Notes under the pieces: generated by a model | Databases searched by the model: none | What the model was told of the DNA's origin: nothing | The model's input: the letters and a program-made list of their open reading frames with translations, nothing else | Virus record (IMG/VR): IMGVR_UViG_3300036985_003382 | Location: 2,166-66,165 of that record | DNA length: 64,000 nucleotides | Source: a virus | Lineage: Duplodnaviria; Caudoviricetes | Strand: one strand, 5' to 3' | Part shown: piece by piece, positions 1 through 44,600 of the stretch | How positions within the stretch are numbered: the stretch's first letter is position 1 | Layout: the number at the start of each line of letters is the position of its first letter | Translations under genes and position numbers: made by a program

Positions 1-87
1 CAAAGCGCTCGCCTTGTTTATTGTTTGGTGTTGAGTCCCACATTGTGCCCCACAACTCAAACTTGTATACAACTGGATCTTCTGCTT

Positions 88-378
88 TCATATTTTTACC
101 TCTACCGTAACAACAAAAGGTTTAAAGTCAGGCTCTATTGTGATTGTTACCTTTTCTGCTTCGTCATCCCATTCAAGATAACAATCAGGGCATTCAAGAC
201 AGTACTTAGCAGTTTTCTTGTCTGTCACCCATGCTTCCATGACACCTAAGAAATACCTTCTGTCTTTCTTAGGGCAGTTAGTCATACGATAAAAGTGACG
301 TGCCCAACGTAACATGCCAGGTGCATTAAACATTGGAACGGATGTAAGTGTAATTTTTCTCATTGTGTTATCTTTCAT
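88..378 (-). CDS. hypothetical early phage protein
   Basis: 96-aa ORF in a tightly packed minus-strand run; no recognised motif. Confidence 0.7.
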   Translation of the reverse strand: MKDNTMRKITLTSVPMFNAPGMLRWARHFYRMTNCPKKDRRYFLGVMEAWVTDKKTAKYCLECPDCYLEWDDEAEKVTITIEPDFKPFVVTVEVKI

Positions 379-387
379 TATGTAGTT

Positions 388-416
388 GTGCGTTGTCAGT
401 GAGACGCACCCCTCAC
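388..416 (-). repeat. intergenic repeated H-type pseudoknot motif, copy 1
   Basis: Minus strand GUGAG-GG-GUGCGU-CUCAC-UGACA-ACGCAC; near-identical copy at 936-964. Confidence 0.7.
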
Positions 417-423
417 TTACCGA

Positions 424-918
424 TTACTTGATAAGAGTTATCAAGTCTGAGTTATCACGAGCAGCAGCTGCCTTGATATTGTCAAGCTTCTTCATTGCTT
501 TGGTGACCTGCGTCCAGAAATCGAAATCAATCTCAGGCATAGGTACCTTGTCAATGACTAATCTGAATCCCTCAATCGCTTGATTGATTTGATCATCAAG
601 TGTTGTTGCCGTGATGGCAAGACCAAACTCGGATTCCTTCATTGCATTTGGGTGATACCACTGATCATTGCCTTGGTCGTAGGCAGAGTAAGTGACTGTA
701 ACCATAGCAGTAGGTAAAGGCAAGGCTACTAATGCAGAAGTAGCAATGTCCATTCGTAGGACATACTTCATTCTCAACCTATGACCGTTGATAGTCATAT
801 CAGTTTCGTATTGGGTAGTTTGAAACTCTTCATAAGAAGTAAGTGTTCCAGCGCTGAGGCGCTCACCAGACTTCAGAGTGTTCTCAACGAAATGGGTTGT
901 GTAAAGTGTTACGGACAT
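424..918 (-). CDS. hypothetical early phage protein
   Basis: 164-aa ORF with A-rich leader, flanked by the two pseudoknot repeats. Confidence 0.75.
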   Translation of the reverse strand: MSVTLYTTHFVENTLKSGERLSAGTLTSYEEFQTTQYETDMTINGHRLRMKYVLRMDIATSALVALPLPTAMVTVTYSAYDQGNDQWYHPNAMKESEFGLAITATTLDDQINQAIEGFRLVIDKVPMPEIDFDFWTQVTKAMKKLDNIKAAAARDNSDLITLIK

Positions 919-935
919 GATTTTGTTTCTTTTCT

Positions 936-964
936 ATGCGTTGTTGGTGAGACGCACCCCTCAC
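936..964 (-). repeat. intergenic repeated H-type pseudoknot motif, copy 2
   Basis: Minus strand GUGAG-GG-GUGCGU-CUCAC-CAACA-ACGCAU; 26/29 identical to copy 1. Confidence 0.7.
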
Positions 965-972
965 ATCAAACA

Positions 973-1227
973 TTAGATAGCGACGTAGCAGTATGTTAGT
1001 AGTTTTACTTGACCTTTAGTCTTTATTAAATTAATGACATCGTCGTGTTGTGATTCATCAATAAACTCAAGGATCTCCGAAATCACAATGAGTGTAAAGT
1101 TATTCTCATTACGTGAATCTTCATAGTGTTTACTGATTCGGTTAAGTTGATCTTGCGTTATAAGGTTTTCGTTAAATAGTGAATCGAGTAATAACTCACC
1201 ACTAATAACTTCATATGGAAACTTCAT
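973..1227 (-). CDS. hypothetical protein
   Basis: 84-aa ORF abutting the upstream stop codon. Confidence 0.65.
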   Translation of the reverse strand: MKFPYEVISGELLLDSLFNENLITQDQLNRISKHYEDSRNENNFTLIVISEILEFIDESQHDDVINLIKTKGQVKLLTYCYVAI

Positions 1228-1476
1228 TTAAAACACGTTCTTTCTGCTGGTTACAGCTTTGTCGGTCACGATGTTCATATAAACCATCATGTATGGATTG
1301 AACTCATACATGTGCTCCATGCACCGTGTGATTCTTATCTGCATGACCTCTGGATGTATATACACAAGAGAGCGAGCCACTGCTGTAGCAACGGCAGCAT
1401 TCTTAAAGACACCAACAGGGCCGATTGCTCGGCCCTGAAAGTCATACATTTGATTGTGATAGGTATATCTAGGCAC
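1228..1476 (-). CDS. hypothetical protein
   Basis: 82-aa ORF, GTG start after GAGG, overlaps the upstream stop. Confidence 0.6.
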   Translation of the reverse strand: MPRYTYHNQMYDFQGRAIGPVGVFKNAAVATAVARSLVYIHPEVMQIRITRCMEHMYEFNPYMMVYMNIVTDKAVTSRKNVF

Positions 1477-1804
1477 TTGTATCTACCTCTTCCCATCCTG
1501 CTGGCGTAGGCCTTGGTATTGGTGTTAATGCATCAGCCACATCGAGATATGTAGCTATCTCAACTGGATTAGGCTCCATGCCATTGTTGCACCACTTGTT
1601 GAATTCATCTGCATTACGTGTTTTATGCGGAACATACGCACCTGCAAACTTAAGTAACTCACATAGATTGTCGCAAGCAATGCTATCCAAGTTCCATTCA
1701 AAACCGGGCTTGAGTAAGATCAATCCCTCGATGCCACTACCCGGATAGATGTGAAGGTATGCAAATCGCAAGATAAGCATTTTGTAATGTTTAAGATCAG
1801 TCAT
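1469..1804 (-). CDS. hypothetical protein (start re-assigned to MTDLKH)
   Basis: ATG at 1804 overlaps the end of ORF 1797-2174, removing a long overlap. Confidence 0.6.
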   Translation of the reverse strand: MTDLKHYKMLILRFAYLHIYPGSGIEGLILLKPGFEWNLDSIACDNLCELLKFAGAYVPHKTRNADEFNKWCNNGMEPNPVEIATYLDVADALTPIPRPTPAGWEEVDTSA

Positions 1805-2174
1805 TGTCTTTGTCTTTCTGAAACTCTTTACGTAAGAAACACCGAAATTGAACCAACCAAAGTTCCAAGCTATCGGGATCACTTGGAAATGCATACTGTG
1901 ACCAGATACCAGCTCCGTGCACAGTAATTTGCCCCTCAAAGTCACACATATCAGCACTTACAGTCATGACGTAGTCGTGATATGGCTCATATCTTTCAAA
2001 CTCAATTCGACACGATTGCTTAAGTGACATGGACTTGCCATTCTTATCAAATGAATGACATGATGTCTGCATTTTCAATCGCTCATACTTATGTTTTAGT
2101 GGAGTTCTTACAAACTCATAGACTGCTTCCGCAGCAAACTGCGGAGTTACATACTCATAGTTGACTGTCATCAT
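1797..2174 (-). CDS. hypothetical protein
   Basis: ORF starting MMTVNY after GAGG. Confidence 0.65.
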   Translation of the reverse strand: MMTVNYEYVTPQFAAEAVYEFVRTPLKHKYERLKMQTSCHSFDKNGKSMSLKQSCRIEFERYEPYHDYVMTVSADMCDFEGQITVHGAGIWSQYAFPSDPDSLELWLVQFRCFLRKEFQKDKDND

Positions 2175-2271
2175 CAATCCTCTTTTGTACTTCATTTACT
2201 GTGTGAACAAACCAAGCAACTGTTGCCAAAATGGAAACAATTGCAATAGCAATGCATATTACGAACATCAT
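2155..2271 (-). CDS. small single-pass membrane peptide (38 aa, MMFVICIAIAIVSILATVAWF...), not in ORF track
   Basis: Manual translation; start overlaps the upstream stop (ATGA); hydrophobic N-terminal stretch. Confidence 0.55.
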   Translation of the reverse strand: MMFVICIAIAIVSILATVAWFVHTVNEVQKRIDDDSQL

Positions 2272-2582
2272 GCTCGTTTTCGCCTTTTAATTCTGTCTAT
2301 ATGTATGCGGTTAGTATTACTAGGCTCATCGCCTGATCTTTTGTACTTACTAAACGCCTCATGAACAACTACTCCTGTAGGTAATAGATCTATAGGTAAT
2401 TCGTCCAACACGCCTCCCTTCCACGTGCCATTGGATAACTTGGTCACTCGTTGGTATTTGACCATCACACGCAAGTCCTGTGGCCTTGCAGACCACTTAT
2501 TGTTTGGTGCGTCTAAAGAAACAACAACCCCGATGTTATCGGGGCGTCGCACGTTACGAACTCTCATGCCTACTTTAAGCAT
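2268..2582 (-). CDS. hypothetical protein, SH3/KOW-like N-terminus
   Basis: MLKVGMRVR...GVVV pattern typical of small phage SH3-fold proteins. Confidence 0.6.
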   Translation of the reverse strand: MLKVGMRVRNVRRPDNIGVVVSLDAPNNKWSARPQDLRVMVKYQRVTKLSNGTWKGGVLDELPIDLLPTGVVVHEAFSKYKRSGDEPSNTNRIHIDRIKRRKRA

Positions 2583-2808
2583 TCTGCATTTCCCTCAACT
2601 GTGCGACCAGCATGCCTACTGGGTTTTCCATGTACTTAGCACAATCAGTGCCAAGTTTGATGATGAGTTCCTCATCAAGTCTATCGATACCGTTCATTGA
2701 AATCAAAAGGTATTGTTCTCGCGAGTACTGTGGCCACAACTCAATGGTTGTGTCGTATTTCCATCCGCAATAAACACGGAGCGCTTCCAAAGCTTTTTCT
2801 CTTGTCAT
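2575..2808 (-). CDS. hypothetical protein
   Basis: 77-aa ORF with AGGA RBS. Confidence 0.65.
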   Translation of the reverse strand: MTREKALEALRVYCGWKYDTTIELWPQYSREQYLLISMNGIDRLDEELIIKLGTDCAKYMENPVGMLVAQLREMQNA

Positions 2809-2857
2809 TGTGTTCTTCCTAAATCTTATTGTTAAAGTAATTGTTGTTCAATGTAAT

Positions 2858-2920
2858 GAGGGTAGTAATATTTAGACCCTCCCGGTTACTATTTTTGGGA
2901 GGGTACTAAAATTTAGACCC
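2858..2920. repeat. two 22-bp imperfect direct repeats, 41-bp period
   Basis: GAGGGTAGTAATATTTAGACCC (2858-2879) and GAGGGTACTAAAATTTAGACCC (2899-2920). Confidence 0.7.
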
Positions 2921-3116
2921 CTAGTCTACGACGCCTTTGTGCCTCTTTATCGGCTTGGTGTGCCTCAACAATGAGGCTATCAAGCTTCTGGCAAAGGCTT
3001 TTGAGGTGATCCTCATTAGCTTTGAGTGTGTCCCCGGTACGAGACCAAGTCTTGTACATGGCACGAGATAACTCGTTAATTTGTGTCTGCGTTTCTAGAA
3101 TTTTGTTTGTGTTCAT
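2913..3116 (-). CDS. hypothetical coiled-coil protein
   Basis: 67-aa ORF immediately downstream of hammerhead 1. Confidence 0.6.
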   Translation of the reverse strand: MNTNKILETQTQINELSRAMYKTWSRTGDTLKANEDHLKSLCQKLDSLIVEAHQADKEAQRRRRLGV

Positions 3117-3127
3117 GGTTATTCCAT

Positions 3128-3195
3128 TAGACCTGACTCATCAGCGCAAGGTGGTCAATTCTTGACAGACTTCTCCGCAAGGGAGAAGTTTCGTC
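3128..3195 (-). ncRNA. hammerhead ribozyme, type II
   Basis: Minus strand GAC-GAAAC-UUCUCC/GGAGAA-GUC-stem I (UGUCAAG/CUUGCG)-CUGAUGA-GUC; complete core; loop-I GACC can pair with 3' tail GGUC. Confidence 0.88.
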
Positions 3196-3626
3196 TATAA
3201 GAGGCCCGTTGCCTTCATCGACTTCATCTGCTCGATCAATATTCTTGATTTGTATGTGCCGTACCACATCTCAAATCCACAGTTGTGAATCGACAGAACG
3301 CACTCACGTTTAAATGGTAAGAGTTTCTCTGGTTGGGTCACCTTGCATTTCTGCTTGGTGTATGCCTCAAACAGATTTCCATACTGCTCTGCTTCCTCTT
3401 CAGTGATGAACAGCATGAGGTTCTTCTTACCTACGTTGTCAAGAGTACACACATACTCTTCATCATCTGTGATGAGCAAGAATGGCCACTTAGGCCAGTC
3501 GAGCATCTCATCCTTGTCATACTCGCACTCCTCAGCAGCGGTCTCAATGGCGTCGATAACGTCATCGAGTTCAAGCTTTACTTGCTTTGCTATACGTCGT
3601 GCTGTCCACTCTTTAAATATGTTCAT
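3195..3626 (-). CDS. hypothetical protein
   Basis: 143-aa ORF with GGAGG RBS. Confidence 0.75.
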   Translation of the reverse strand: MNIFKEWTARRIAKQVKLELDDVIDAIETAAEECEYDKDEMLDWPKWPFLLITDDEEYVCTLDNVGKKNLMLFITEEEAEQYGNLFEAYTKQKCKVTQPEKLLPFKRECVLSIHNCGFEMWYGTYKSRILIEQMKSMKATGLL

Positions 3627-3976
3627 ACTGTTTCCTCCCAGTACTTGCTACCAAGTACTCTCTGTGACCAATCCCATCCAAACTTTTGGATAGTCATCAT
3701 GTGACGCCGCCCCTTGTGATGGGCAACAAAGCGAATTGCTCCGTAATCATCGCTCCAGCTAGGACAATCCCAGCCGTAGTTGATGGTCCACTTAATGCTT
3801 CGCATGTAGTCCGCAGACCAAACCCAATTCAATGGCTCATCTGTGTGGTCATATGTGTCAAGGTAGACCACATACGGCTCATCTTTTGCCATCTTAAGGA
3901 TGGTGTGAGCTTGATCCAAATTCATCACACGTATCGTTTTTGTTGCCTTTGTTGCGGGCAGACGCATCCAGTTCAT
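3623..3976 (-). CDS. hypothetical protein
   Basis: ORF with GAGGAG upstream; overlaps the next gene's start. Confidence 0.7.
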   Translation of the reverse strand: MNWMRLPATKATKTIRVMNLDQAHTILKMAKDEPYVVYLDTYDHTDEPLNWVWSADYMRSIKWTINYGWDCPSWSDDYGAIRFVAHHKGRRHMMTIQKFGWDWSQRVLGSKYWEETV

Positions 3977-4084
3977 ATCCAAGATATTCTCCTCATTGAA
4001 ACATAAGACTCTGTATAGAACGCAGGACAGGTGGTACCTCCACCACGGGTTGCCTCATTGAGTTTTTGAAGCCCTGCATTCTAA

Positions 4085-4110
4085 ACAAAGTGGGGGACTT
4101 GCGCCCCCCG
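4085..4110 (-). terminator. putative intrinsic terminator (GCAA tetraloop)
   Basis: GGGGGC-GCAA-GUCCCC hairpin followed by CUUUGUUU just after the stop of ORF 4117-4452. Confidence 0.55.
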
Positions 4111-4116
4111 TGTGCA

Positions 4117-4452
4117 TTAGTCGATGTTCTTTTCGATGTGGCGTCCAAGGTCACATCCCATTGCAGCAGCATTCACATGCGCTTCATCCAACTCTTCACT
4201 GATACGCTGTCGCTCTACTTCTGTGCGCATCATACTTGTATGTTCCATACCTGCAATAAACAGCGACGCAACGGCGATGATGACCAAGCTTGCAATAACT
4301 GACTGCAAGCCGATGATTCTCTGCCTTGCATTGCTCATCGTCTTAGCACCACGATTCAACGATGCAATAGCGTCATCAAGGTGTGCGTCAAGCACGTCAA
4401 TGTGTGAGCTGACTTCCGCTGGGAGGGAGTCGATTTGTTTCTGTGTAAGCAT
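4117..4452 (-). CDS. membrane-anchored coiled-coil protein
   Basis: Hydrophobic segment IIGLQSVIASLVIIAVASLFIAGM between helical regions. Confidence 0.7.
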   Translation of the reverse strand: MLTQKQIDSLPAEVSSHIDVLDAHLDDAIASLNRGAKTMSNARQRIIGLQSVIASLVIIAVASLFIAGMEHTSMMRTEVERQRISEELDEAHVNAAAMGCDLGRHIEKNID

Positions 4453-4498
4453 TTCTGCGTTTTCCTTTGTTGTTGACTGTCTACATATAGACCAAACC

Positions 4499-4553
4499 TG
4501 CGTTTCGGCATGACTGCCTCATCAGTTCACTATCGTCACATAGTGAAGACGCA
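4499..4553 (-). ncRNA. hammerhead ribozyme, type III
   Basis: Minus strand UGC-GUC-UUCACUAU/AUAGUGAA-CUGAUGA-GGCA/UGCC-GAAAC-GCA; perfect stems; loop I UGAC complementary to loop II GUCA. Confidence 0.93.
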
Positions 4554-4568
4554 TTATAGGTTGGGGGC

Positions 4569-4979
4569 CTAAGCCCCCTTCAACTTCATAACCCCCTTCC
4601 GAATCGCTGCACGGATGCAGTCCGATTCAAGGATGACATTGACACAGTCATCACTGTAACTGACGTCTTCGTAGCCTTCTGCGATGAGTTCAGCCATGCG
4701 GTCACCCATACCTTCGTAAGAACAGAAGTCATGTGCCTTGTACTGCACGTGCAGTTGTGTGCCTTCAACCTGACGCATCATGCGTACAGACTGTGTATTC
4801 ACCAACCAAGCAAAACGTTCGTCAGTTATTGGTTGCGTAAACTTGATGGTTTCCGATTTACCATCTTTCTTAGCCCATATGAACAGATGGGCGTAGATGC
4901 CATGGATGCAGTACGCATCTACATCAGGCAATTCAGCAGGGAACGGTGTCTGTACTGTGTTCAAGTCAAGTTGGCTCAT
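4569..4979 (-). CDS. hypothetical protein
   Basis: 136-aa ORF with A-rich leader and AAGG RBS. Confidence 0.7.
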   Translation of the reverse strand: MSQLDLNTVQTPFPAELPDVDAYCIHGIYAHLFIWAKKDGKSETIKFTQPITDERFAWLVNTQSVRMMRQVEGTQLHVQYKAHDFCSYEGMGDRMAELIAEGYEDVSYSDDCVNVILESDCIRAAIRKGVMKLKGA

Positions 4980-5015
4980 TGTGGTACCTTTTTTTGTTTT
5001 TTTGTTTTGAAAGTA

Positions 5016-5040
5016 GCACCCGGTATCTTACACCGGGTGC
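5016..5040 (-). terminator. 9-bp hairpin downstream of the first early gene
   Basis: GCACCCGGT-N7-ACCGGGTGC followed by UACUUU on the minus strand. Confidence 0.45.
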
Positions 5041-5051
5041 CAGCGGGGAGG

Positions 5052-5399
5052 TTATGCCAGCTCTGTGCCAGCATCCTCCGATGTGCCAACCTGCGTGGTT
5101 ACTGCATCCATTGCAGTCTTAGCAGATTGTGCATATTGAGCGGCGATAGCATCCGCCTTCGCTTCGGTAACGGCGATAGAACACTCCAACACCTTAGCGG
5201 TCAATGCTTCCAGCAGGGAATCAAGGTTCGCTTGGCTTGCAAGCGGTGAACGGCGTGCATTATTCGCATAGACCTTTGCAATGTTGCGGTAAGATTTCTG
5301 CACTGACTCTGCGCGTACACTATCGCTGTTCGTTTTACAAACAGTCAATAGCTCCAATAGCGCATTGACTTCAACGGCGGCGGCGGATAAAAACTTCAT
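5052..5399 (-). CDS. Ala-rich helical protein, first early gene (start re-assigned to MKFLSA)
   Basis: AAGGA RBS before ATG 5399; the ORF-track ATG at 5447 lies inside a ribozyme core. Confidence 0.65.
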   Translation of the reverse strand: MKFLSAAAVEVNALLELLTVCKTNSDSVRAESVQKSYRNIAKVYANNARRSPLASQANLDSLLEALTAKVLECSIAVTEAKADAIAAQYAQSAKTAMDAVTTQVGTSEDAGTELA

Positions 5400-5413
5400 G
5401 ATACTTTTCCTTT

Positions 5414-5486
5414 GGTAAAACAGTTTCGACAATAAGTTTGTCTTCATTCAGCACTGCAGTAACCAACTGCAGTAGACTGTTTCACC
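5414..5486 (-). ncRNA. hammerhead ribozyme type III, variant core
   Basis: Stem III GGUGAAACAGU/ACUGUUUUACC, GUC site, stem I UACUGCAGU/ACUGCAGUG, core CUGAAUGAA, stem II GACAA/UUGUC, GAAAC. Confidence 0.72.
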
Positions 5487-5489
5487 GTG

Positions 5490-5700
5490 CCACCCAGTAG
5501 GGGGCACACCATGTAAGTGGGTGGGGAATTTCAAACCAGTCACGTGCATGGGGGTGGGGGAGGGTAGACACCGGCATGGCAAGGGGGTGGGTGGGTACGA
5601 TCGGCCTAGTAGGGACTCCAAACCATATATTTCTTCTACTTCTTCTATATCTTCTCCGCACGGAGAAACTGTATCTCCCCGGAGAAATTAGGTTCCATAC
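5490..5700. other. non-coding strand-switch region with G-tracts (candidate control, packaging or terminus region)
   Basis: Divergence point between early (-) and late (+) arms; multiple G3-G5 runs, a pyrimidine tract and a TTCTCC/GGAGAA inverted repeat. Confidence 0.55.
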
Positions 5701-5738
5701 GGTTTTGCTACACTTTGTACCATGCTATACTCCCGATT

Positions 5739-6278
5739 ATGGCTAACCAATTTAAATCCGCAGATGAAGCAGCTGGCTACTTATTTGATGTAGCTATTCG
5801 CAAAGGTAAGGTAACGGCGAAACAAGAATATGAACGACTATACACAAGCCTTCCTCAAGATCAACAAATGGCTTTCTATGCGTCTGTAAATAAAATATTA
5901 AACCAAAAAAACCTCCGGGATAACGAGGGTTTAGGTGATGCTAAAGTACAGCGTTATCGTGAAAAAGCAGCCAAGAACATGTCGGTTGATTATGACACAG
6001 AGTTCGCCCCTAAGTCGGAGCCTAAAGCCCCCTCTAAGCCCACGCAAGCCCCGTCAGCAGCACCTAAACCTGTAGCCAAGGAAGTTACTAAGCCAGCACC
6101 TGAGCCAGTCGCTAAGACTAAAACAGAACCAATGGAAGACGAGAAGGGATTTCGTCCATATAGCAAGCAGTCTATGAGTGGCTTATTAAATATCAAAGCT
6201 GATAACCCTGCTCCTAATAGCCGTGCAGCTATTGGTGGATCAACACTTAAAATGCCAGCATTTGTACCCAAAAAGTAA
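5739..6278 (+). CDS. Pro/Lys/Ala-rich hypothetical protein, possible internal virion protein
   Basis: ATG 7 nt after TGCTATACT; PAPK-rich linker; SGLLNIK motif. Confidence 0.7.
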   Translation: MANQFKSADEAAGYLFDVAIRKGKVTAKQEYERLYTSLPQDQQMAFYASVNKILNQKNLRDNEGLGDAKVQRYREKAAKNMSVDYDTEFAPKSEPKAPSKPTQAPSAAPKPVAKEVTKPAPEPVAKTKTEPMEDEKGFRPYSKQSMSGLLNIKADNPAPNSRAAIGGSTLKMPAFVPKK

Positions 6279-6296
6279 GATATACTTACGGTACTT

Positions 6297-6368
6297 TCCT
6301 ACTTAGCTCAGCGGTAGAGCCTCCGGCTGTTAACCGGATGGTCGCTGGTTCGATCCCAGCAGTAGGAG
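6297..6368 (+). tRNA. tRNA-Asn(GTT)
   Basis: Cloverleaf: acceptor TCCTACT/AGTAGGA, anticodon arm TCCGG-CTGTTAA-CCGGA, T-loop TTCGATC. Confidence 0.95.
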
Positions 6369-11329: not shown

Positions 11330-14300
11330 ATGGCATCATTATTATCTAGCTTAGTTCGTGGAACTTCACCAGTCAGAAGACCAGAAGATGAAACAGTGAC
11401 GCCCGGAGGAGTTGCTCCTGCGCAACCTCCGGTGTCTATTCCACCTACTGCTCAACCAGTTCCTCAAGCAGCTCCACCATCAAGGGATTTAGCATCTGAG
11501 CCATTAATACCATCTATGGATGTTGGACCAGCCATGTTTGATCCATCAAAGTTAGATTTTGGTGCCTTATTTCAAAATGCTTTACTTAAGTCTCAGCCAT
11601 CTGCACCTACTACTACTGTTGATACAGCACAAGGACCACGCGTATTAGCTGGCAGTACGCCAGCACAAGATATTACACAGATTAAAAGATCTGATTTTAA
11701 AATCGAAGATATATCAGCAGATGCAAAAGGACTAGGAAAGTTTTTAACTGACTCTGGTGGGGGAACTTATAAATCTGGTTTAGGTTTGATTGATGATATG
11801 CAAACGTGGTTTAACAAGACTACGCGCACAGGCATGGGTGAAACACCTATGTCTCCACTTACAGCAGGTACAACCAGAGATGAATTATCTGGCGATAGCC
11901 CATTACGTAAGTTGGTTGGATATGCAGCTTCATTAAAGAACTCTGATGCGCCATACGCCAAGGAACAAGCTAAGGCATACTCTGATGCAATCCTTTGGCT
12001 GACTAAATCCATTGAGAACAACGATCAAAGAGCATATACAGCAGCAAAAGCAAACATTGACTCTCTTACTAAGCTAAACACAGAAGACTTTGCTAGATCT
12101 GGAACTAGATCCCAATTTGCTAGAAATGGTCAGTTAGTCAGTGCGTATGTAACAGGCAAAACCATACAACAAGCTGAGATAGATAAAGAAGCTGCATCTA
12201 CACCAGCAATACAACGTAAGGTTGTAACAAGTGCAGTTTTTGACTATGTGCAAGACAGATTTAAAGACTTAAGAACACAAGCTGAATCCGGAGGTGAAGA
12301 CGCACGGAGAGCACAGCGTACGTTAGATGTTTTTGGTCAATCATTTAAAGATATCTATGCACCAGTAACTGAGGGCACTCGTGATGCTAGATTAGCAGCA
12401 TTTGAATCATCACCACAAGGTCGAGCACTGATTACAGACGCGTTTGATAACTTGTCAGGTCTAGGATATTTTAATAGACCTAAGTTCAAAAGCATTGTAG
12501 ATAGATCAAAGGCGGGAGACATTAATCTTACGCCTGCTGATATCAAATCTATTATTGGTGAAACACAATATAAAAAACGACTCGGTTCTACTATTGATGT
12601 TGCTGATGATTTACCTGATGACGCAATCCAAGCCCTAAAACTTACACCAGATGACCCACAACGAATAAGCGGTGTCTATAGAGGTTTAACACCACAAGGC
12701 ATTGGGGCACTACAGGGCTTTGGGGATACTGATCAACCATTAGGTGAGCCACTAAGAGCAGGTCAGCCAGACGCTAGAGAATTTGATATTTCGCAGAACG
12801 TTCGTTCAACTGATACCTCTACTGGTATGACTATCACTCCAGTTACTGATAGCAAAATTAAAACTCGTGGTGAGTTAGCAGGAGCTATGGTTTCAGGCCT
12901 TGGGTTAAATACAGAACAAGCCGGAGAAATTGCTAAGCGTGTATTTACGGACACAACAGATCAACAAAGCTTTATAAACGCAGCTACCGTATCGTATGAC
13001 ATACAAGATGATGTCTTAACTAAAATTGCATCTGACGCTGGAACTATACGTGTTGCCAATACTGGTGGACAAACAACAGGAGGCCGCGCTAAAAGTACAT
13101 ATGCTTTAGTTAGCGATGTATTTGCCGCCGCTAATGATGTATTGCCACAACAAACATTTACAGAATCTTCATTAACACGACGTCAATGGGATTTGCGTAA
13201 ACGTGTATTAAATGACGCTGCTTCACAAGCTCAACAAATTGAAGGATCTGGTGCAGATGACGCAGTAAATGTAAAACGTTTCTATACAAGCGCAGATGGC
13301 AAACCAGATTTTACAAAACCAATTGTTCCAGATGCAAAAGATCAAGTAGGCAGGATTGCACTTCTTAAAGCAATGATTGATAAGGCCGCTGCTCCAGATG
13401 GCGCTGCATATAGACGTCAATTAGAGTTGCTGGCCAGAAGTGCTGTTGATGGACAACCATACACTGGCAGCATCAATATGAATCCAAGAGCGTTCCAAGG
13501 TCTTGTCAGTCTCTATGCATCACGTGTTGAAAGTGCTGCAGATGCTGATAAATCTGGGAAAACAGACAGTTGGTTCCAAAGCAAATTTGACATTAAGCCA
13601 AGTGAACTATCTAAGGTTGATAACCGAGATGCGTTCATGATGAAACTGGTAACAGCAAGCCCATCAGCGTTAAGGACATTTGCTAGTTCACTAGGAGCAG
13701 CGGATGCAACTGTTACACGTGGATTAATTCCAACTACTACTGCTGGTCAAGTAATAGATACCGCTGCTGGTATTCCGGGTGACATACAGGGTGGTGGGCG
13801 CAAGAATAGTAAAACCGAAAATCAAGCTCTAGGAAATATAGATCGAGCTACAAAAATTGTTGGCGGTGGATTTGAATCTGCTTTAGATGCAGTTTTAAAG
13901 TATAACGATGATCCTTCAACTGTAGATGTTCCACACACAAAAAAACAGTATGGCGAGGCGTTACTTGCCGTATTTGACAAAACATTAAATGAGTCAATGA
14001 AAGGCGTTTCATTTAAAGCTGGAGACAAAGCAAAGTTTAATAGTTTACGTGAAGCTATTCGCACTGAAATTATTAAACAAGCTGACACAGAATGGACTGC
14101 TGGAACTGTAACTAAAGACGATCTTAATGCAATCCTTAAACCGTTAGCTTCACAAATTCTAGGAGTTGACGCGCAAAAGACAAAAGCATTACCTGCGGTA
14201 GATAAACCTGAACCAAGTGTTGTCAAAGACCTTGAAGCTGGTAAGTCTGCTTATGACAAAGCCAAGGCTGAACTTGGCGGAGACCTTGGAACAAAAACAG

Positions 14301-17300
14301 ACATTGCAGCTGAACTTACATCTGACGAATCTTCTAAATATCCTGCGTATCAAGCATTTCTTGGAAAGTTAAAAGAAAGGCGTTTAGTCAATTATGGTCG
14401 TATTACCAAAGAAGTAGAAACACGTCAGTTAGGTATTACGACGGCTGGTGCAAAGTTAAATAGATTAAAGCAAGAAGGTAAGATCAATACACCTGAATTT
14501 AATACAGCATTAGATGCATATAACAAAGCACACGATGACTACAATGCTAAACGTTCAGAATTAGATACAGCGTTTGATTTAGTTAGTCAACCAATATCAC
14601 TTGATGATATGGACAAATTAATAAATACAAAAGAATTAGCAGTAATTGGAAGCGCTTCTAGGTCTGAAGCATTTACTAAACTAAGAGAAAAGATTTCAAA
14701 TGGTGGATGGGCATCATTAACACCAACAGAACGCGCAAGTTATTATCGTGAATCACTCACTAGATATTTTACTAGCGAACGCGGTAACGCAATCAGTCCT
14801 GTAACTCGTAGACGTTTGGCCTTTAGATCATTTATTGATTCTCCTCAAGGAGCAAACTGGGCACCTGTTAAATTAACAAGTGAACCGGGTGCTAATATAG
14901 AAAAATTAAAAGAGGACGCGTACACACCATCATATTTAACGGAAGTTACAAATGAAAAAGGTGATGTTATTGCACATAAGCTCAATCCTAATATTTCATT
15001 CAAATATGTACCAAAGTTAAATAAAGAAACAAACCGGATTGATTCATTAGATATTGTTGCTGAAGAAAGAATTACTGGCGGCGACAACAGACGAACAGTT
15101 ACAAAAAGACAGTTTGTTGTAACTGGCCGTGAAGTAGAAATTATGATGGCCCTTAATGACATGAAAGACATTAAGGATGAATTTGCTGCTATTGAAGCAA
15201 ATGTATTAAAACTTGATAGTGTTAAACAAAAAGTAACTGACACTAAACAAGCTGCAAAGTTTGGCTTAGTGCAAGATAAAGATAGTGGATATAAGTATCG
15301 AGACGGTGGATCATTTAGTCAGCTATTGCAAAGTTTAGTTGAATTTGAAAATGCTCCTAGTTTAACTAAAAACCAAGAGACGGTAAGAGCCGCATTATTG
15401 GCTGAAGGAGAAAAGTATTTAACGCAAATAGGTTCAAAAGATTCAATTAATAAGGTAGTAAACAAATACGCTAAACGTGCTGGCGCTGCAACTCGGATGA
15501 TTAAATTCCAAGACGTTTTGCGCGAACGTCTTGCTGATCGAATTGATGCCTTTAGTAAAAACGGGAGAACACCAAATTTAGCTGATTTACAACAAGACAT
15601 AAATGATTATTTTGATGGCGGTAAGATTGACGAAGTCGATAATGACGCCAGACGTACTGAAATGGCAGCTTTGCAAAAGACAGATGTTGCTGGAATTTTA
15701 CGTGCAGATAAATACGTAGAGAAAACATTTGGAACAAACGGACCATTACAAATATCAGCAGCTCAAAACACTAAGGGTAATCGAGCAATAACCATGCCCG
15801 TTGCAAAAGCTTATGATGAGTTATTGCAACTGAGAAACAAAATTGATGGTGGTGATCAATCTCCAGAAACAGAGTTTAAGTTTTTACAACTAAGAGATAA
15901 ATTTGTAGAGCACACTGGAAAATCAATTAGTGATCTCGATAGAGCATTTACTATCAGTAACGTTGAATCTGCAAATAATTTAGTTACTACTGGCGGTAAT
16001 AAACAACGAGCATCTGGTGAAAACTTTGGTATTAGATTTGGCGAATACGCTCAAAGATATATACCAATTAAAACACCACGTCCGGGATTTGAAACTGAAG
16101 CAGATTTTAAAAAGTTTAACAAAAAGATGACGGTGAATGAAAAGAAGCGCGTTGATGCAGAAAAGGAACTAGGTAAGACTCTTGGGTTTGACACCACTAA
16201 CTACAGTACACGTAGTAGTGTATGGACTGACTTGAACACAAAATGGAAGAACTCAACACCTAATCAATGGGATTCATGGATTTCTGGTGTACCTGAAGAA
16301 GTTAGAAATAGAGTTCTTGAACATTATACACGTTGGTCAACAATGGGTGGAGAGGGTAAAAATGATGCACTTGGAAATCAAGGGCAAGCAGGATGGAGGG
16401 CTATTGATTGGGCAGTTGACGGGAATGGCAATGTAACGCCTGATGCAAAAAAAGTACTATCTTCAATTACTCAATGGGCTTCAGTAAGTAGAGTCAAGTT
16501 TGATAGCAATGATCTTAAGGATTTATCAACAGACATTTTACGGATGTATACACTTGAAAACAGTAACACCAAAGTAACTAGAGAGGATTTAGCAAAGTTT
16601 AAAAGCCCATTGGTAAGAGGTGTATTGCGACAGCGAATTAATCCCGGACCCGGCATAACAATTGGTGATCCGTTTACTCAATTTATTAATGCTATTGATC
16701 CAACTCCACTGCAAGGTGCTGCGCAAATTGTTGCACAAAAACAGAAAACGGCACTGGCATTACCACAAGCGCGACGCGTAGTAAATCAAAAACTTAAAAC
16801 AGATGCTGATTTTAGGTCTGCTGTTAATTCTGTTTTACGAGCAGAAGGTGAACGTTATGTAATTACCGATCAAGGAAAAATTGCAAAACGTTCTTATTCC
16901 GCTAAAGATCCAGTAGAACCAAAGGGGTTATCTGGTGATGATTTATTCAAATGGAGAGTTGAAAATAAACAACTAACGTATTTAGATTATTTACGTTACT
17001 CTGCTGATGTGCATGACACGGCTACTCAACCAAGAGACTTTTTGATTGATGGTAAAACTGTAACGGTTCCAGTTAGAGATGTAAAAAATGGACCTGAAGG
17101 CATGTTGAAATTCTTACAGAAACGTATGTCACGTGCTGAACCTAAGTCTGTCACAAACTTTGAGGCCCCTAAGTCTGTTGTCGCATTACCACCAAATGTT
17201 GATCCATTGCGACCGGGTAGACAGATAGGATTCCGGTATCAGGGTGCAGATTACTTTATTGGTGCAAAAGAATACGCATCGCTTGTGCAAGATATAAATG

Positions 17301-17593
17301 ACGGAAAGATCAGCACAAAAGATGTAAGGGGTCTTGTTACATCATTAGTTTCTAAACTTAGATATAGAACATATGGTGCAGACTTAAAGAAACCATTATT
17401 ACTTGGAGTAAAAGCAGTCGGTGAAGGTGAAGCTGACGTAAAGAAAATTCCAAAAGAAGTTCAAGAAAAAATGATTGAAGAAGCAAAGAAAGAAGGCTTC
17501 AATATCAAAAAGAGTATTAAGGGTGGAATACCGGGATTCTTTAGTGCGATGATTGCAGCTATTATTGCAGAGTGGAATAGCAAGGAAGAGTAA
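11330..17593 (+). CDS. very large (2087 aa) hypothetical protein, probable internal virion protein
   Basis: Uninterrupted ORF; Pro-rich N-terminus, helical composition, hydrophobic C-terminal helix; no enzyme motif recognised. Confidence 0.75.
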   Translation: MASLLSSLVRGTSPVRRPEDETVTPGGVAPAQPPVSIPPTAQPVPQAAPPSRDLASEPLIPSMDVGPAMFDPSKLDFGALFQNALLKSQPSAPTTTVDTAQGPRVLAGSTPAQDITQIKRSDFKIEDISADAKGLGKFLTDSGGGTYKSGLGLIDDMQTWFNKTTRTGMGETPMSPLTAGTTRDELSGDSPLRKLVGYAASLKNSDAPYAKEQAKAYSDAILWLTKSIENNDQRAYTAAKANIDSLTKLNTEDFARSGTRSQFARNGQLVSAYVTGKTIQQAEIDKEAASTPAIQRKVVTSAVFDYVQDRFKDLRTQAESGGEDARRAQRTLDVFGQSFKDIYAPVTEGTRDARLAAFESSPQGRALITDAFDNLSGLGYFNRPKFKSIVDRSKAGDINLTPADIKSIIGETQYKKRLGSTIDVADDLPDDAIQALKLTPDDPQRISGVYRGLTPQGIGALQGFGDTDQPLGEPLRAGQPDAREFDISQNVRSTDTSTGMTITPVTDSKIKTRGELAGAMVSGLGLNTEQAGEIAKRVFTDTTDQQSFINAATVSYDIQDDVLTKIASDAGTIRVANTGGQTTGGRAKSTYALVSDVFAAANDVLPQQTFTESSLTRRQWDLRKRVLNDAASQAQQIEGSGADDAVNVKRFYTSADGKPDFTKPIVPDAKDQVGRIALLKAMIDKAAAPDGAAYRRQLELLARSAVDGQPYTGSINMNPRAFQGLVSLYASRVESAADADKSGKTDSWFQSKFDIKPSELSKVDNRDAFMMKLVTASPSALRTFASSLGAADATVTRGLIPTTTAGQVIDTAAGIPGDIQGGGRKNSKTENQALGNIDRATKIVGGGFESALDAVLKYNDDPSTVDVPHTKKQYGEALLAVFDKTLNESMKGVSFKAGDKAKFNSLREAIRTEIIKQADTEWTAGTVTKDDLNAILKPLASQILGVDAQKTKALPAVDKPEPSVVKDLEAGKSAYDKAKAELGGDLGTKTDIAAELTSDESSKYPAYQAFLGKLKERRLVNYGRITKEVETRQLGITTAGAKLNRLKQEGKINTPEFNTALDAYNKAHDDYNAKRSELDTAFDLVSQPISLDDMDKLINTKELAVIGSASRSEAFTKLREKISNGGWASLTPTERASYYRESLTRYFTSERGNAISPVTRRRLAFRSFIDSPQGANWAPVKLTSEPGANIEKLKEDAYTPSYLTEVTNEKGDVIAHKLNPNISFKYVPKLNKETNRIDSLDIVAEERITGGDNRRTVTKRQFVVTGREVEIMMALNDMKDIKDEFAAIEANVLKLDSVKQKVTDTKQAAKFGLVQDKDSGYKYRDGGSFSQLLQSLVEFENAPSLTKNQETVRAALLAEGEKYLTQIGSKDSINKVVNKYAKRAGAATRMIKFQDVLRERLADRIDAFSKNGRTPNLADLQQDINDYFDGGKIDEVDNDARRTEMAALQKTDVAGILRADKYVEKTFGTNGPLQISAAQNTKGNRAITMPVAKAYDELLQLRNKIDGGDQSPETEFKFLQLRDKFVEHTGKSISDLDRAFTISNVESANNLVTTGGNKQRASGENFGIRFGEYAQRYIPIKTPRPGFETEADFKKFNKKMTVNEKKRVDAEKELGKTLGFDTTNYSTRSSVWTDLNTKWKNSTPNQWDSWISGVPEEVRNRVLEHYTRWSTMGGEGKNDALGNQGQAGWRAIDWAVDGNGNVTPDAKKVLSSITQWASVSRVKFDSNDLKDLSTDILRMYTLENSNTKVTREDLAKFKSPLVRGVLRQRINPGPGITIGDPFTQFINAIDPTPLQGAAQIVAQKQKTALALPQARRVVNQKLKTDADFRSAVNSVLRAEGERYVITDQGKIAKRSYSAKDPVEPKGLSGDDLFKWRVENKQLTYLDYLRYSADVHDTATQPRDFLIDGKTVTVPVRDVKNGPEGMLKFLQKRMSRAEPKSVTNFEAPKSVVALPPNVDPLRPGRQIGFRYQGADYFIGAKEYASLVQDINDGKISTKDVRGLVTSLVSKLRYRTYGADLKKPLLLGVKAVGEGEADVKKIPKEVQEKMIEEAKKEGFNIKKSIKGGIPGFFSAMIAAIIAEWNSKEE

Positions 17594-20774: not shown

Positions 20775-23005
20775 TGTACGACATCAGTAAATTGTCAAGT
20801 ATGGTTCGCGGCAACAAGCCAAGGATGTCTGCGTTTGAAAAGCCAGACAGTGCCGGTACTATTGGCGCTGAGCTGTTGAAGGATCCTAGATTAGAGGATA
20901 AATCTAATTTAGATCTTGATATACAACCAAAAGGTTGGAAGGTTACTGAAGATTCTGATCCTGAAGAAGCTCGTAAAATTACAAAGTTTGTTCAGACACA
21001 ATTTGACAGTGCTCAAAAAGCCCGTAACGAAATGGAACTAGAGTGGGCGTTAGCAACAGCTTTTTTTGAAGGAAGACAATGGCTAAGAGTTGCAAGTCAA
21101 GGACGTAACTTAATTAGGTTACAAAATCCAAACGAGCCAAATCGTTATATGACGGTTAATAAAATTCGTCCGTTAATTGATGGAGTTGTTGGCAAGCTAA
21201 CTCAATGTGCTCCTGACGCAACCGCAGTTCCGTTATCAGATAGTCCTTCAGATAGAGCTGCAAGTGATGAGGCAAACTATATTGCTAAACACTACAATAG
21301 AAAATTTCAAAGAGAGACGCAGACAAAAGAGCGTGTGCGTTGGGCATGTGTCTGCGGGACGTCTTATCTAAAAGTGTTTTGGGATAGCCGTCGTTCACAA
21401 GTAGTTCCACAGCTAGACGTTGACGGAGAAACTGTAGTTGGTCATACGGAAATGCGGGTAGGAGATGTAGTTGAGCAAATACTTCCGGCATTTGATGTAT
21501 ATGTTGATCCATCGGCAAAACGAGATGATGATGTTCGTTGGATTATTCATGCAATGATCAAACCACTATCGTGGTTTATAGATTCATATGGTGAAATTGG
21601 AAAAAAAGTAGAGCCTGACGCAATGACAGGACAATACTCTGGTTATGTAGATGCGTATCTTGACGGTGCTAACTCTGGAGGTAGAGGCTGGGTTCCTGCT
21701 GCATCTGCTAATACTACAACATCTGAGCGTAGGAAAAACGCCGCTGTTGTTTATGAGTATTGGGAAAAGCCAACACAATTATATCCAGAAGGTAGATACA
21801 TTGTTTCAACTCAGTCAACACTTCTTTATGCTGGTGTATGGCCATATAAAAAGAAAGATGCATTTCCATTTATTCCATTACGATGGCAACCACGCGCAGG
21901 TACGCCGTATGGATATAGTCTTGGATTTGATTTAGTATCTTTACAAAGTACTTACAATCGCATTTACAGTAGACTACTTGAGCAGTTTGAAGCTCAAAAA
22001 GATTATTTACTAATTGAAAAACTTTCTTCTGTTGGAGCAGATGCTTACGACAAAGAGAGTGACACGGTTGAGGACAAGCACCGCATTTACCGTAAAGTGT
22101 ATTACGATCGTGGAAGTAGACCGCCAGCGGTTCAACGCGCTCCGGGTATTGGCTCAGATCTTTTTCCGCTATTGCAAATGCTTGAAAAAGACATGATGGA
22201 TGTCGCAGGACTTCATGATGTTAGTCAAGGAATGGCACAAGCAGGTACACCTGCTGAGTCAGTACGTTTATTGCAGAAGGCTGACAATACTCAGCATTCA
22301 TATGTTCGAGCTGACATTGAAATTAGTAACGCTCTTATTAAAGAGTGGGAGGTTAGTTTAATTGAACAGTTTGCGATCGTCCCATTTATTGGAAACATCG
22401 AGGGAGGAATGCTCCCCAGAGACCAGATACAGCAGGGCGTTATGCGGTTTGATGCTTTGCGCAATGGCGGTCGGTATCGGATTGTTTATGTACCGGGGTC
22501 CAGTATGGATGAAGGGCCAGACCAAAGATTAAACAAGTATGCCACGCTACGGCAAATGGGTATCTTTGGTGACCCAATGGATCCGGCAACCAATAGGTTG
22601 TTTATTCAGTTGGTCAACATGCCTGAGACAACTAAGATTCTTGACCACTTAGATGAACAAGAGGCCAAGATGGCCGAAGCGCAGCAACAACAAATGATGA
22701 TGCAGCAACAAGCGCAGATGGCACAGCAAGGTGAACAACAACAGATCATGCAGTTCAATATGGAGATTGAACAAGCTAAGGCTAGTATTGAAATACAACT
22801 TGAACAAGCTAAGGCTGGCATTGAGATTGAAAAGATTAAGGCACAAATTGCCGCACAACTTGAGGCAGACATTGCACTTGAAACTGCAAAGGCTGGACTT
22901 GAGGCGCAATCCAATGAGGATTACGCAATGGTTGATATTGGAAAACAGTTTGCTATGAATGATTTCGGCAGTGCATCTGGCACTGATCAAATTGAAGGAG
23001 TATAG
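20774..23005 (+). CDS. portal protein (P22-like, long C-terminal coiled-coil)
   Basis: Follows terL; F..G.QW, NKIRP; Q-rich helical C-terminus. Confidence 0.88.
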   Translation: MYDISKLSSMVRGNKPRMSAFEKPDSAGTIGAELLKDPRLEDKSNLDLDIQPKGWKVTEDSDPEEARKITKFVQTQFDSAQKARNEMELEWALATAFFEGRQWLRVASQGRNLIRLQNPNEPNRYMTVNKIRPLIDGVVGKLTQCAPDATAVPLSDSPSDRAASDEANYIAKHYNRKFQRETQTKERVRWACVCGTSYLKVFWDSRRSQVVPQLDVDGETVVGHTEMRVGDVVEQILPAFDVYVDPSAKRDDDVRWIIHAMIKPLSWFIDSYGEIGKKVEPDAMTGQYSGYVDAYLDGANSGGRGWVPAASANTTTSERRKNAAVVYEYWEKPTQLYPEGRYIVSTQSTLLYAGVWPYKKKDAFPFIPLRWQPRAGTPYGYSLGFDLVSLQSTYNRIYSRLLEQFEAQKDYLLIEKLSSVGADAYDKESDTVEDKHRIYRKVYYDRGSRPPAVQRAPGIGSDLFPLLQMLEKDMMDVAGLHDVSQGMAQAGTPAESVRLLQKADNTQHSYVRADIEISNALIKEWEVSLIEQFAIVPFIGNIEGGMLPRDQIQQGVMRFDALRNGGRYRIVYVPGSSMDEGPDQRLNKYATLRQMGIFGDPMDPATNRLFIQLVNMPETTKILDHLDEQEAKMAEAQQQQMMMQQQAQMAQQGEQQQIMQFNMEIEQAKASIEIQLEQAKAGIEIEKIKAQIAAQLEADIALETAKAGLEAQSNEDYAMVDIGKQFAMNDFGSASGTDQIEGV

Positions 23006-41614: not shown

Positions 41615-44600
41615 ATGCCAGATCAACGCGACAAATCCAGATCCGATGCTTATTGGAAAAAAAGATATACCGAAGCAGGTGTTGTTCCAAGTCCTCAAGG
41701 TGTGACCGTAACACGGCCTACTAATAGGCTAGGATTTGAAAATACTTATCCAAAAAGTCAAATTAATGAGTTTGTACGTACTCAATATAATCCGTTAGCT
41801 GATGCTATACGAGCAGGTAATCCAGCTGTAGTTTCATCCGCCACTCTTGACTTTGCTAATAATGCATATCGCGAAGGCCTTATTGATGAGTCTCAACGCA
41901 ATTACATAAAGTCAAGTATTGCGAATATGCGTCAGCAGATGTCGCGTACTCCTGTTGCTTCAGCAGATGGACAGCAAATTCCATTTGGGCGGCTTGGTAG
42001 AGTTCAAGGACCATCTGGAACATTTGGTGCAGTCAACGATCAGTTAATGCATTCTGATCTAATTCAATACAATGCAGATGGTTCTTTTAGTTATAATCCA
42101 GCAGGTACTGCAGCAGATATTAACTCGACAACTGGTGCTAATGCTAGACGTCAACAAGACATTATGGCTGGCGCTACACCAAAAAGTGTTGGTGCTGAAA
42201 CATGGTCTACATTAGGCGCACAAGCAGTTGGCACTGCAGCTGCTTTGCCATATGGTCTAGCGTTAAACTTTCCCGGTTTTAATCCACAAGCTAACGATGA
42301 AACATTTGGTGGCAGGGTCGTGTCTTCTGCTCAAGGTACGTTGGCTGGATTTGCAGCTAAACCACTAGACATGATGTCTGGTATTACTCAGGGTACGTCT
42401 TATCTTGGCGCAAGATTAGCAGGGCGTTCTCCAGAAGATGCAAATCAAATAGCATCAAGTATAAAAGAACAAACTCCTTATTACAATACAAGTGATCAAA
42501 TGCTTGCACCGGGCATGGAAAACCAACAATTTCAATTAGGCTCTGCTGTAGGTGGTGAGCTTTTTACTGCAGTACCAGCACTGTACAGTAGCCTTGGATT
42601 ACTTAATGCATCAGGAGCACTTGGTGCTCGGATGCTTGCCAGTGCTGGCACTAAAGCTTCTAACGTTGGTAGATATATTGGCATTGGGTCAGCTGTTGTA
42701 GCCCCTACTGCTGTTGCTGGTTTTAGAGACCAGTTAACTGGTGGGAAACCCGGTGTTAGGGAAGACCTTGTAGCGGGCGCAGAATCCATCATGGATCCTA
42801 TTAGGTCTACTATGCAACGAGGTATTACGGAATCTGGTGCAATTGGTCAAGCAAACTTTGACCCTCAAGGTAAAACTCAAGCAGCGTTACAACAAGCTGG
42901 CATTCTAGCAATGGCAAGTGGTGGTTCATTACAGATGTGGAAAGACGTAAAAAATCAATCCTCTATTGGCATTCAAGCAATGCGAGAAAGCATTAAGACA
43001 AACCGCAATCCATTTACGGCACTTGGAACAGGCATTTCAGCTTCTATTGAAGGAGAGATTGGTAAGGCTGCAGCCGCTGATCTTGGCTTTGCTTTGACTC
43101 AGCCATTAAGTGACATTGGGCGTATGGTATACGCCAACACACGTATTGATAAATCCGTGCCAATAGACACTCCAACTGCTGGTGATGTATTTAAGTCCAT
43201 GATGCTTGGCCTTGTTGCGTCACGTCCGGGTAAAAGTGCCCAATTCATTTTCCGTGGTAATCCTCTACAGAGCCTTGAACCTAAGACTATGGCATTGGCT
43301 CATGCTACTGATATTGTTCGTAAAGGTGGACCAGAATTACAAGCACTAGTAAAGCATTACAACGAAAAATATAACGACTTCATTGAACCAAATGACGTCG
43401 ATATTAGACGTCTTGCAACAGTAATGGCTAATGATAACGTAGCAAACTTACAAAGGTTAGCTAAATTTCAAGAGATTGAAGACGGTGCTCCAGTCACTAA
43501 AACAGCTGCGGAATATATTGATGCATACATAAATAATCCTGACGCATTCCCAGAATCACTACGTACTAAATATGAGACATTACTTACGAGCATGCGTCCA
43601 AACAAGGCCAAGATAGACCTTGATGATGGCAACCCATTAAATACAATTGAGCTGGCTGATGAGTATAAGACTGATCTAGTTACTAGGCGTAGGCGAATTA
43701 AGGAATATACCGATGCGCTATTGCCAGTTTATACAGAGCAGATGAAAAACTTAGGTCAAAAGCCAGCAGAAATTAGTGACAAGGTTCGTTATTACGGCAT
43801 TGATACTAAAGATGGACGCATGCTTTTATTTGACAGGGATTTTAGGAATGCAACATTAGTTCCAAAACATGAAGCTGAAGACATTGCAATGCTTCAACCA
43901 AAGTATTCCCCAATTGAAAACGTTTATACACCAGAAGAAAAATCTGACCGCCAACCTTTATATGAAGCCCTTGATAATATTCGAGGCAAGGTGTTTCGCA
44001 TAGGTTCGCAAGACGGAGTTGTTACACATTTTGACGCACTGGGTGTGTTCGTTAAAGTCGAGGGTGGTGAAAGTAAATTTTTAAGCCGTAGGGAGATAGA
44101 GCAACTATTAGAAACATCTACTTCTGATGGTTTAACGGAAGAACAAATTGATAATTTAACTCAACTACAAGAGTTAACAAACATTATTCATAGAACACAA
44201 AGTCTTGTTGAACCAACAAGACAATCTCTTTATGGTGAGCAATTTAAAGATAGTAGATTTAAAACACCTTTATTAAATACTGGGCGATCGTTACGTGTAA
44301 AGCCAGATGCAAATTTAGTAGATACATTTAGAGGTACTGATATATTCCAGTCCAGCGATGGATCTTATGCAATTTTTACTAAAGGTGAAATCCCTTCTAC
44401 GCTTTCACCAGAATTTAAAAATCCCGGCGAAAGACAAATTGATCCAACTAATTCAGTGTGGACAGTAAGTAAAGATACTGCTAGTGGACCTATAGATGTT
44501 GACCTTGTGTTATCTGGGCGCCAACAAGAAGCTATTGCTGCGTTACCACTAGGCAGTACTGCTGAAAAAGGTATTGAGAAAGCCTACGATTATGCAGACC

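Follow-up and report, generated by a model that had tools for sequence, protein, structure and literature searches.

Conserved hammerhead ribozyme motifs between the small genes of a leftward operon in an uncultured phage: candidate sites of transcript self-processing

The DNA considered here is a stretch of 64,000 nucleotides (nt), referred to below as the window, from a virus of the class Caudoviricetes. It covers bases 2166-66165 of the IMG/VR record IMGVR_UViG_3300036985_003382, which is 66,165 bases long and rated complete. The window encodes a P22-like portal protein and a DnaB-type helicase, as well as three transfer RNAs, which were the sole output of a full Rfam scan at gathering scores. 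A megablast search with window positions 1-6300 found no match to a cultured phage, and the best matches of the portal protein are actinophage portals with 21-26% identity, so that no annotated relative was of help. In this work we focused on a block of genes running from 5399 down to 88, all of them small and all on the minus strand, and on three hammerhead or hammerhead-like elements in its intergenic gaps, which are conserved in related phages and of which the two with a consensus core probably cut the transcript of the block at gene boundaries. Coordinates are those of the window, and features lie on the minus strand unless marked otherwise.

The first gene of the leftward operon (5052..5399, 115 amino acids (aa)) and the second (4569..4979, 136 aa) have no family match, and no relative of the second was found among the viral contigs searched. 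The ATG at 5399, and not the one at 5447, was taken as the real start of the first gene, because a homologue in a related lineage (L005) begins there. They are followed by a third gene (4117..4452, 111 aa), by two genes of 117 and 143 aa (3195..3976), the second of which is a conserved anchor gene whose stop codon abuts a type II hammerhead, and by a 67-aa gene 3' of that hammerhead (2913..3116). When 18 proteins of or adjoining the operon were compared with PHROGs, 17 had no match and one had a weak match to a family of unknown function.

The first-pass annotation had described three hammerhead folds on the coding strand of this block, and all three were recovered as hammerheads or hammerhead-like elements by sub-threshold Rfam matches, folds, cores and covariation. 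They are a hammerhead-like type III junction in the leader (5414..5486), a consensus type III hammerhead (4497..4555) and a type II hammerhead (3127..3196), in which the loop of stem I forms a pseudoknot with the 3' tail and which begins inside the TAG stop of the upstream gene. Each is intergenic, as had been proposed, and they end 14, 46 and about 11-18 nt before the next ATG (at 5399, 4452 and 3116, respectively). The three also differ in topology and are not copies of one another, in agreement with the annotation. In all of them three helices (stems I, II and III) meet at one junction, the GAAA and the A15.1-U16.1 pair are correctly placed, and the base at the cut site is not a G.

The consensus type III copy is identified by its Rfam match, fold, descriptor and covariation. 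At 4497-4555(-) the Hammerhead_3 model scores 41.8 bits, compared with a gathering score of 48.5, with an E value of 1.1e-6 over 6.3 kb and 1.1e-5 over the whole window. The Rfam alignment is full length and contains the core CUGAUGA, the GAAA and the cut site GUC, which places the predicted cut between 4548 and 4547. Minimum-energy folding also gives the three-way junction. Loop-loop pairing that would bring stems I and II into contact is possible in the type III elements, but only 75% of the cells are paired, partly owing to an alignment shift. A G+C-rich hairpin (4563..4578), whose loop contains the second gene's stop codon, lies 7 nt 5' of this hammerhead.

For the type II copy, the Hammerhead_II model scores 27.2 bits at 3127-3196(-), compared with a gathering score of 37 (E 0.026 over 6.3 kb, 0.27 over the whole window). 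This alignment is likewise full length, with CUGAUGA, GAAA and GUC, and the predicted cut falls between 3168 and 3167. There is no separate upstream hairpin at this site; the element's own 8-bp stem III would end the upstream product. The Rfam search that had been suggested thus supported the two consensus copies, although below threshold, and left the leader element without a match even at E<=10. Over the whole record the two Rfam hammerhead families gave no match beyond these two sites.

A strict hammerhead descriptor run over the window returned both consensus sites and, in addition, a weak one within the portal gene. On 100 shuffles of the window it returned a mean of 0.31 sites, with weak matches in 25 of the 100. 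The weak site (20835-20969 (+)) is a type II match with stems of 4, 2 and 3 pairs and is at chance level.

Homologues of the anchor gene, with 78% and 48% identity, were found in five viral contigs, and a profile search recovered the same five loci and nothing further. A search with a pattern of the type II element recovered 8 viral and 5 metagenome contigs with hammerheads at the same places. In each of the five loci Rfam reports a Hammerhead_II match (31.6-36.3 bits) where the anchor homologue has its stop codon, and two of the loci also have a Hammerhead_3 match (45.1 bits); the best relatives, with 45.1 and 36.3 bits, are to be compared with the gathering scores of 48.5 and 37. With the descriptor and a covariance model trained on 12 distinct consensus type III sequences, further copies were found, so that each operon has, besides its type II element, two to four of type III. 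In five related records of 44-67 kb there were 10 model matches at E<=0.1, all in the same gene block and on the same strand. A model search with all filters off also gave noise at E 0.17-0.5, and its alignment was excluded from the counts. The densest array seen lies in lineage L025 (35-2630), with five hammerheads in 2.6 kb, namely the leader element, three of type III and one of type II.

The core CUGAUGA is invariant in the 12 type III and 9 type II homologues that were aligned. Among the 12 distinct type III sequences, 97.1% of the 204 cells are paired, compared with 24-45% in slid controls, and 12 of the 17 pairs have changed on both sides, including all 8 of stem I. None of 500 shuffles reached the observed value for four of five measures; the fifth, further pair types, was not above the shuffles. 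The 9 distinct type II sequences have all of their 189 cells paired, and four pairs changed on both sides, two of them in stem I and two in the 4-bp pseudoknot, which is retained in 9/9. Because their position is kept in relatives and their stems carry compensatory changes, we conclude that the hammerheads are real conserved RNA structures, and the conservation of ribozyme positions that had been put forward as a check is borne out.

The leader element contains a GUC with a predicted cut between 5475 and 5474. Its minimum-energy fold is a three-way junction with GUC and GAAA and with stems of 9, 5 and 11 pairs (z score -3.56; 0 of 200 shuffles fold as well), and its 25 stem pairs compare with 23 in the best of 60 shuffles. 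When the window was searched with a covariance model made from the consensus type III copies of the phage group only, all filters off, this element ranked second with 17.9 bits (E about 0.007), the next match having 11.7 bits (E 0.54). Junctions of the loose shape (UH plus GAAA) occur by chance about 38 times per shuffled window. A G+C-rich hairpin (5487..5507, dG -14.7, z score -3.4) lies directly 5' of the element and is retained in relatives with differing sequence.

The strand joining stems I and II of the leader element is CUGAAUGAA, that is, the consensus with one base added after A6/N7 and one after A9, so that it is two bases longer than the consensus core strand C3-U4-G5-A6-N7-G8-A9. 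An extra base after A9 is tolerated in hammerheads. Since MAFFT alignments fell out of register, the leader stems of eight lineages were parsed by coordinates; 144 of the 145 stem cells form standard pairs, with stem sequences unrelated between lineages. The cores of the homologues are UUGAUAA, CCGACGAU/A or CUGACGAU. Two of the eight lineages (L023 and L025) have the consensus plus one extra base, L017 has U3-A8, the window has the two extra bases, and in four lineages C replaces U4, where four pairs of stem I have changed on both sides. As the core departs from the consensus, the activity of the leader copy is doubtful. It is best called hammerhead-like and hammerhead-derived, not a proven member of the family, with a predicted activity that would be slow or doubtful.

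Upstream of this element, 5487-5738 is a divergent non-coding region, because a plus-strand gene begins at 5739. The approximately 250 nt of non-coding sequence at 5487-5740 are conserved in seven lineages, with a mean column identity of 74% and many invariant blocks, and their operon strand contains long runs of C, which appear as G runs on the plus strand. RNAalifold gave no covariation support for this 250-nt region (covariation term +1.02; 5 of 48 pairs changed on both sides). It may hold DNA-level sites such as promoters, an origin or packaging signals, or it may be a sequence-constrained leader that would be cut off by the leader hammerhead.

The surroundings of the ribozymes follow a regular layout. 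A G+C-rich hairpin lies within about 12 nt 5' of the type III element in all 21 instances examined, many of them near-copies, with a z score of -2 or below in 14 of the 21. Each ribozyme is followed by a spacer rich in A that contains a ribosome-binding site, and then by a start codon. As either the upstream hairpin (type III) or stem III at the stop codon (type II) precedes the cut, cleavage is expected to leave a hairpin at both new RNA ends, and judging from this arrangement both predicted cleavage products would be hairpin-capped. According to gene maps, the genes between the leader and type II ribozymes vary among lineages while the ribozyme sites stay. The genes 3' of the type II ribozyme are largely shared among lineages and come without hammerheads. 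One type III sequence is identical in several contigs with different flanking genes.

We consider it probable that the small genes of the leftward block are transcribed together into one multi-gene RNA and that this RNA carries self-cleaving hammerheads wherever a single gene or a pair of genes ends. The consensus copies at 4497-4555 and 3127-3196 would most likely cut themselves during or soon after transcription. The upstream piece would then end in a 2',3'-cyclic phosphate just past a stable hairpin, which is the separate G+C-rich hairpin for type III and stem III for type II, and the downstream piece would begin with a 5'-OH, followed by the stem I hairpin and the A-rich spacer with its ribosome-binding site. 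Each gene unit would thereby have defined, hairpin-capped ends regardless of its neighbours, which fits the exchange of genes between ribozymes among related phages. The leader copy, an element of the same kind 14 nt before the first gene, would remove the long conserved leader; with its altered core it probably cleaves slowly, conditionally or not at all.

Several points weigh against this reading. Transcription of the block as one RNA, its cleavage and any effect on stability or translation are deduced from what we observe in the DNA, namely the motifs, their conservation and covariation, and the layout of the modules. The early status of the operon is assigned from the size and position of its genes only. 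None of the three window elements reaches the Rfam gathering cut-off. In the type II region the minimum-energy fold fails to give stem I, which carries a bulged C in the window's copy, and type II covariation is mainly one split between two clades, with stems II and III invariant. The leader core is non-consensus in six of the eight lineages (extra base after A6, U3-A8 or U4 to C), and both U4C and the additional base after A6 are described as having low activity in vitro (Perreault et al. 2011, PMC3088659). Leaky termination is another possible role of the hairpins that precede the ribozymes. In a promoter scan, sigma-70-like promoters were not enriched upstream (6 sites versus 11.6 expected).

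Among the alternatives, the one that survives best accepts that the hammerheads cleave and assigns them mainly a role as portable boundary or insulator modules instead of the tuning of RNA decay. With a hairpin and a ribozyme belonging to every cassette, a gene would keep the same 5' untranslated region after recombination, and the elements of 55-70 nt would provide patches of homology for the exchange of cassettes. Synthetic ribozyme insulators do work as portable boundary modules. The mosaic gene content between ribozymes whose sites and sequences persist, the identical type III sequence in contigs with differing flanking genes and the A-rich spacers with clear ribosome-binding sites all speak for such a role, but no recombination breakpoints have been mapped to the ribozymes, and the region 3' of the type II copy is variable in places and yet free of ribozymes. 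The insulator role is moreover compatible with one in stability, and as the main explanation we hold it to be unlikely, if worth keeping in mind.

Less probable still, in our estimation, is that some or all of the elements are dead for cleavage and kept as structural RNA, in the form of stabilizing 5' or 3' folds or protein-binding sites. The leader copy above all would suit this explanation, with non-consensus cores in most lineages on stems that nevertheless covary in the group with C at position 4, and some consensus and variant candidates were inactive in the work of Perreault et al. (PMC3088659). On the other hand, no base of the core has changed in any lineage at the two downstream sites, which structure alone does not need, and two leader lineages retain the consensus core. 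Furthermore, according to the same source hammerhead variants with U3-A8 are active, and a U4C viroid variant, weak in vitro, is sufficient in vivo; phage hammerhead variants were suggested there to be perhaps slow or conditional (PMC3088659). Finally, the probability that the matches are chance resemblances in AT-rich intergenic DNA is close to nil, since the scores below the gathering cut-offs and the weak descriptor matches and loose junctions in shuffled sequence are outweighed by the E value of 1e-5 of the type III copy over the whole window and contradicted by the syntenic conservation and covariation in relatives.

The other gaps of the block also contain structured elements, and all those listed by the first-pass annotation are present: a pseudoknot motif occurs at 936-964 and again at 388-416, direct repeats occupy 2858-2922, and a three-way junction lies at about 4008-4091. 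Upstream of the third gene's 3' neighbour, a terminator-like hairpin followed by a T-rich stretch (4092..4109) is succeeded by a long stem closing a three-way junction without a hammerhead core (4008..4091; z score of the region -4.7), which stands before a ribosome-binding site in a slot that is occupied by a type III hammerhead in some relatives. This junction has no Rfam family at E<=10. It was seen only in the window and in two near-identical metagenome contigs (94% identity), and two pattern scans of viral contigs gave only unrelated stretches (2 and 5). The two direct repeats at 2858..2922, of about 25 nt and each capable of forming a hairpin, are partly conserved in relatives.

The 29-nt hairpin/pseudoknot motif, which lies about 25 nt before start codons, is present twice in the window, at 936..964 and at 388..416. 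In total we found 12 copies in six lineages (including L011, L016, L017, L019 and L025), and 20 of the positions are invariant. In one copy the hairpin is doubly compensated, and one pseudoknot pair is G-C, G-U or A-U and never A-C; 1 of 500 shuffles reached the observed values. A hairpin-type pseudoknot is a plausible interpretation of these patterns, and the strong sequence conservation would also fit a site for a protein or polymerase. Membership of the pistol-type or hepatitis delta virus-like ribozymes was rejected on architecture and on the lack of an Rfam match. The leaders that follow the motif are A-rich and without an obvious Shine-Dalgarno sequence, unlike those of the operon's other genes.

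A far-reaching view would make the whole block a series of cassettes bounded by ribozymes, all of their junctions being self-processing, with the junction at 4008-4091 and the 29-nt motif as new classes of self-cleaving RNA and the altered leader hammerheads as deliberately slow or signal-dependent switches that free the conserved 250-nt leader. We regard this as very improbable.

Further observations concern the remaining sequence. Between the first two genes, 4980-5051 (-) lacks a hammerhead but contains a 10-bp hairpin and then an A-rich run, and L017 and L019 share it with 92-95% conservation. At 2158-2271 (-) a short open reading frame (about 37 codons), encoding a hydrophobic peptide, overlaps the stop of the preceding gene (ATGA). 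Outside the block, the four largest proteins of the window had no PHROG match, and the open reading frames at 41615-54463 (+, 4282 aa) and 11330-17593 (+, 2087 aa) had no match in Pfam or PHROGs.

The cutting of an early polycistronic RNA between genes is well known from phage T7, where host RNase III cuts long imperfect hairpins and leaves hairpins and 5'-phosphate ends. The resemblance is a functional analogy and not one of membership. In the block described here the hairpins have 5-11 pairs, in contrast to the long imperfect ones of the T7 type, and the RNA would cut itself, leaving a 5'-OH and a cyclic phosphate. Fungal and plant RNA viruses carry hammerheads just 5' of open reading frames (PMC13725137), likewise in a short intergenic or 5' region and with a cut only a few nt ahead of a start codon; their hosts are eukaryotes, the topology is type I, and the role proposed is in cap-independent translation. 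Type II hammerheads near phage-like genes in Desulfovibrio vulgaris were active in vivo by cyPhyRNA-seq (PMC8782182). They share the topology and the phage-like context with our type II copy, but occur singly, each at its own place in the chromosome, and have a measured activity.

The leader copy finds its counterpart in HHphage of the haloviruses HF1 and HF2, which has an altered core and precedes the start codon of the first gene in an early polycistronic transcript by about 13 nt (PMC3088659), compared with 14 nt in the window. The HHphage core differs in having insertions near C3 and stem I and needs high salt, and a mapped 5' end supports its cleavage.

The closest known systems are the clustered hammerheads of prophages. 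Multiple hammerheads in prophages often flank single genes or short blocks whose identities vary, cleavage of three such arrangements was found in vitro and of one in vivo, and the processing of long phage transcripts into gene-length mRNAs was already proposed (Perreault et al. 2011, PMC3088659). The processing idea is reasonable and, for the phage studied here, plausible from its sequence, having been published in outline since 2011. A 2019 review (PMC6765202) repeats it and calls the role of bacterial and phage hammerheads unresolved and largely elusive. Our literature search returned no paper that settles the role in phages, and the supplement of PMC3088659 may already list similar or near-identical hammerheads. 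All three window copies lie under the Rfam gathering scores, and for this reason routine annotation would miss them.

With three elements in 2.4 kb, the window has the clustered arrangement described by Perreault et al. (2011). As in the clusters of Agrobacterium tumefaciens, Clostridium scindens and Azorhizobium caulinodans (PMC3088659), the elements are co-oriented and of mixed types, flank phage-origin genes of varying identity, and the type II copy has the pseudoknot between loop I and the 3' tail. In contrast to these prophages, the present case is a free, uncultured phage genome without a close cultured relative, and is distinguished by positions kept throughout the lineage, a hairpin before every type III element and non-consensus leader cores. 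It adds an example and detail to a known phenomenon and no new mechanism. Three features seem to merit the attention of specialists: the pairing of hairpin and ribozyme as a module, the cassettes that vary while the ribozyme sites stay fixed, and the altered cores found in series at the leader position. With up to five ribozymes per operon at conserved positions and exchangeable genes between them, the lineage offers a clean comparative case; the regular order of hairpin, ribozyme and ribosome-binding site predicts hairpin-capped ends on both products, and the four cores at the leader position (the consensus and three variants) in matching scaffolds form a natural series bearing on the selection of slow variants, beside the clustered prophage hammerheads already described.

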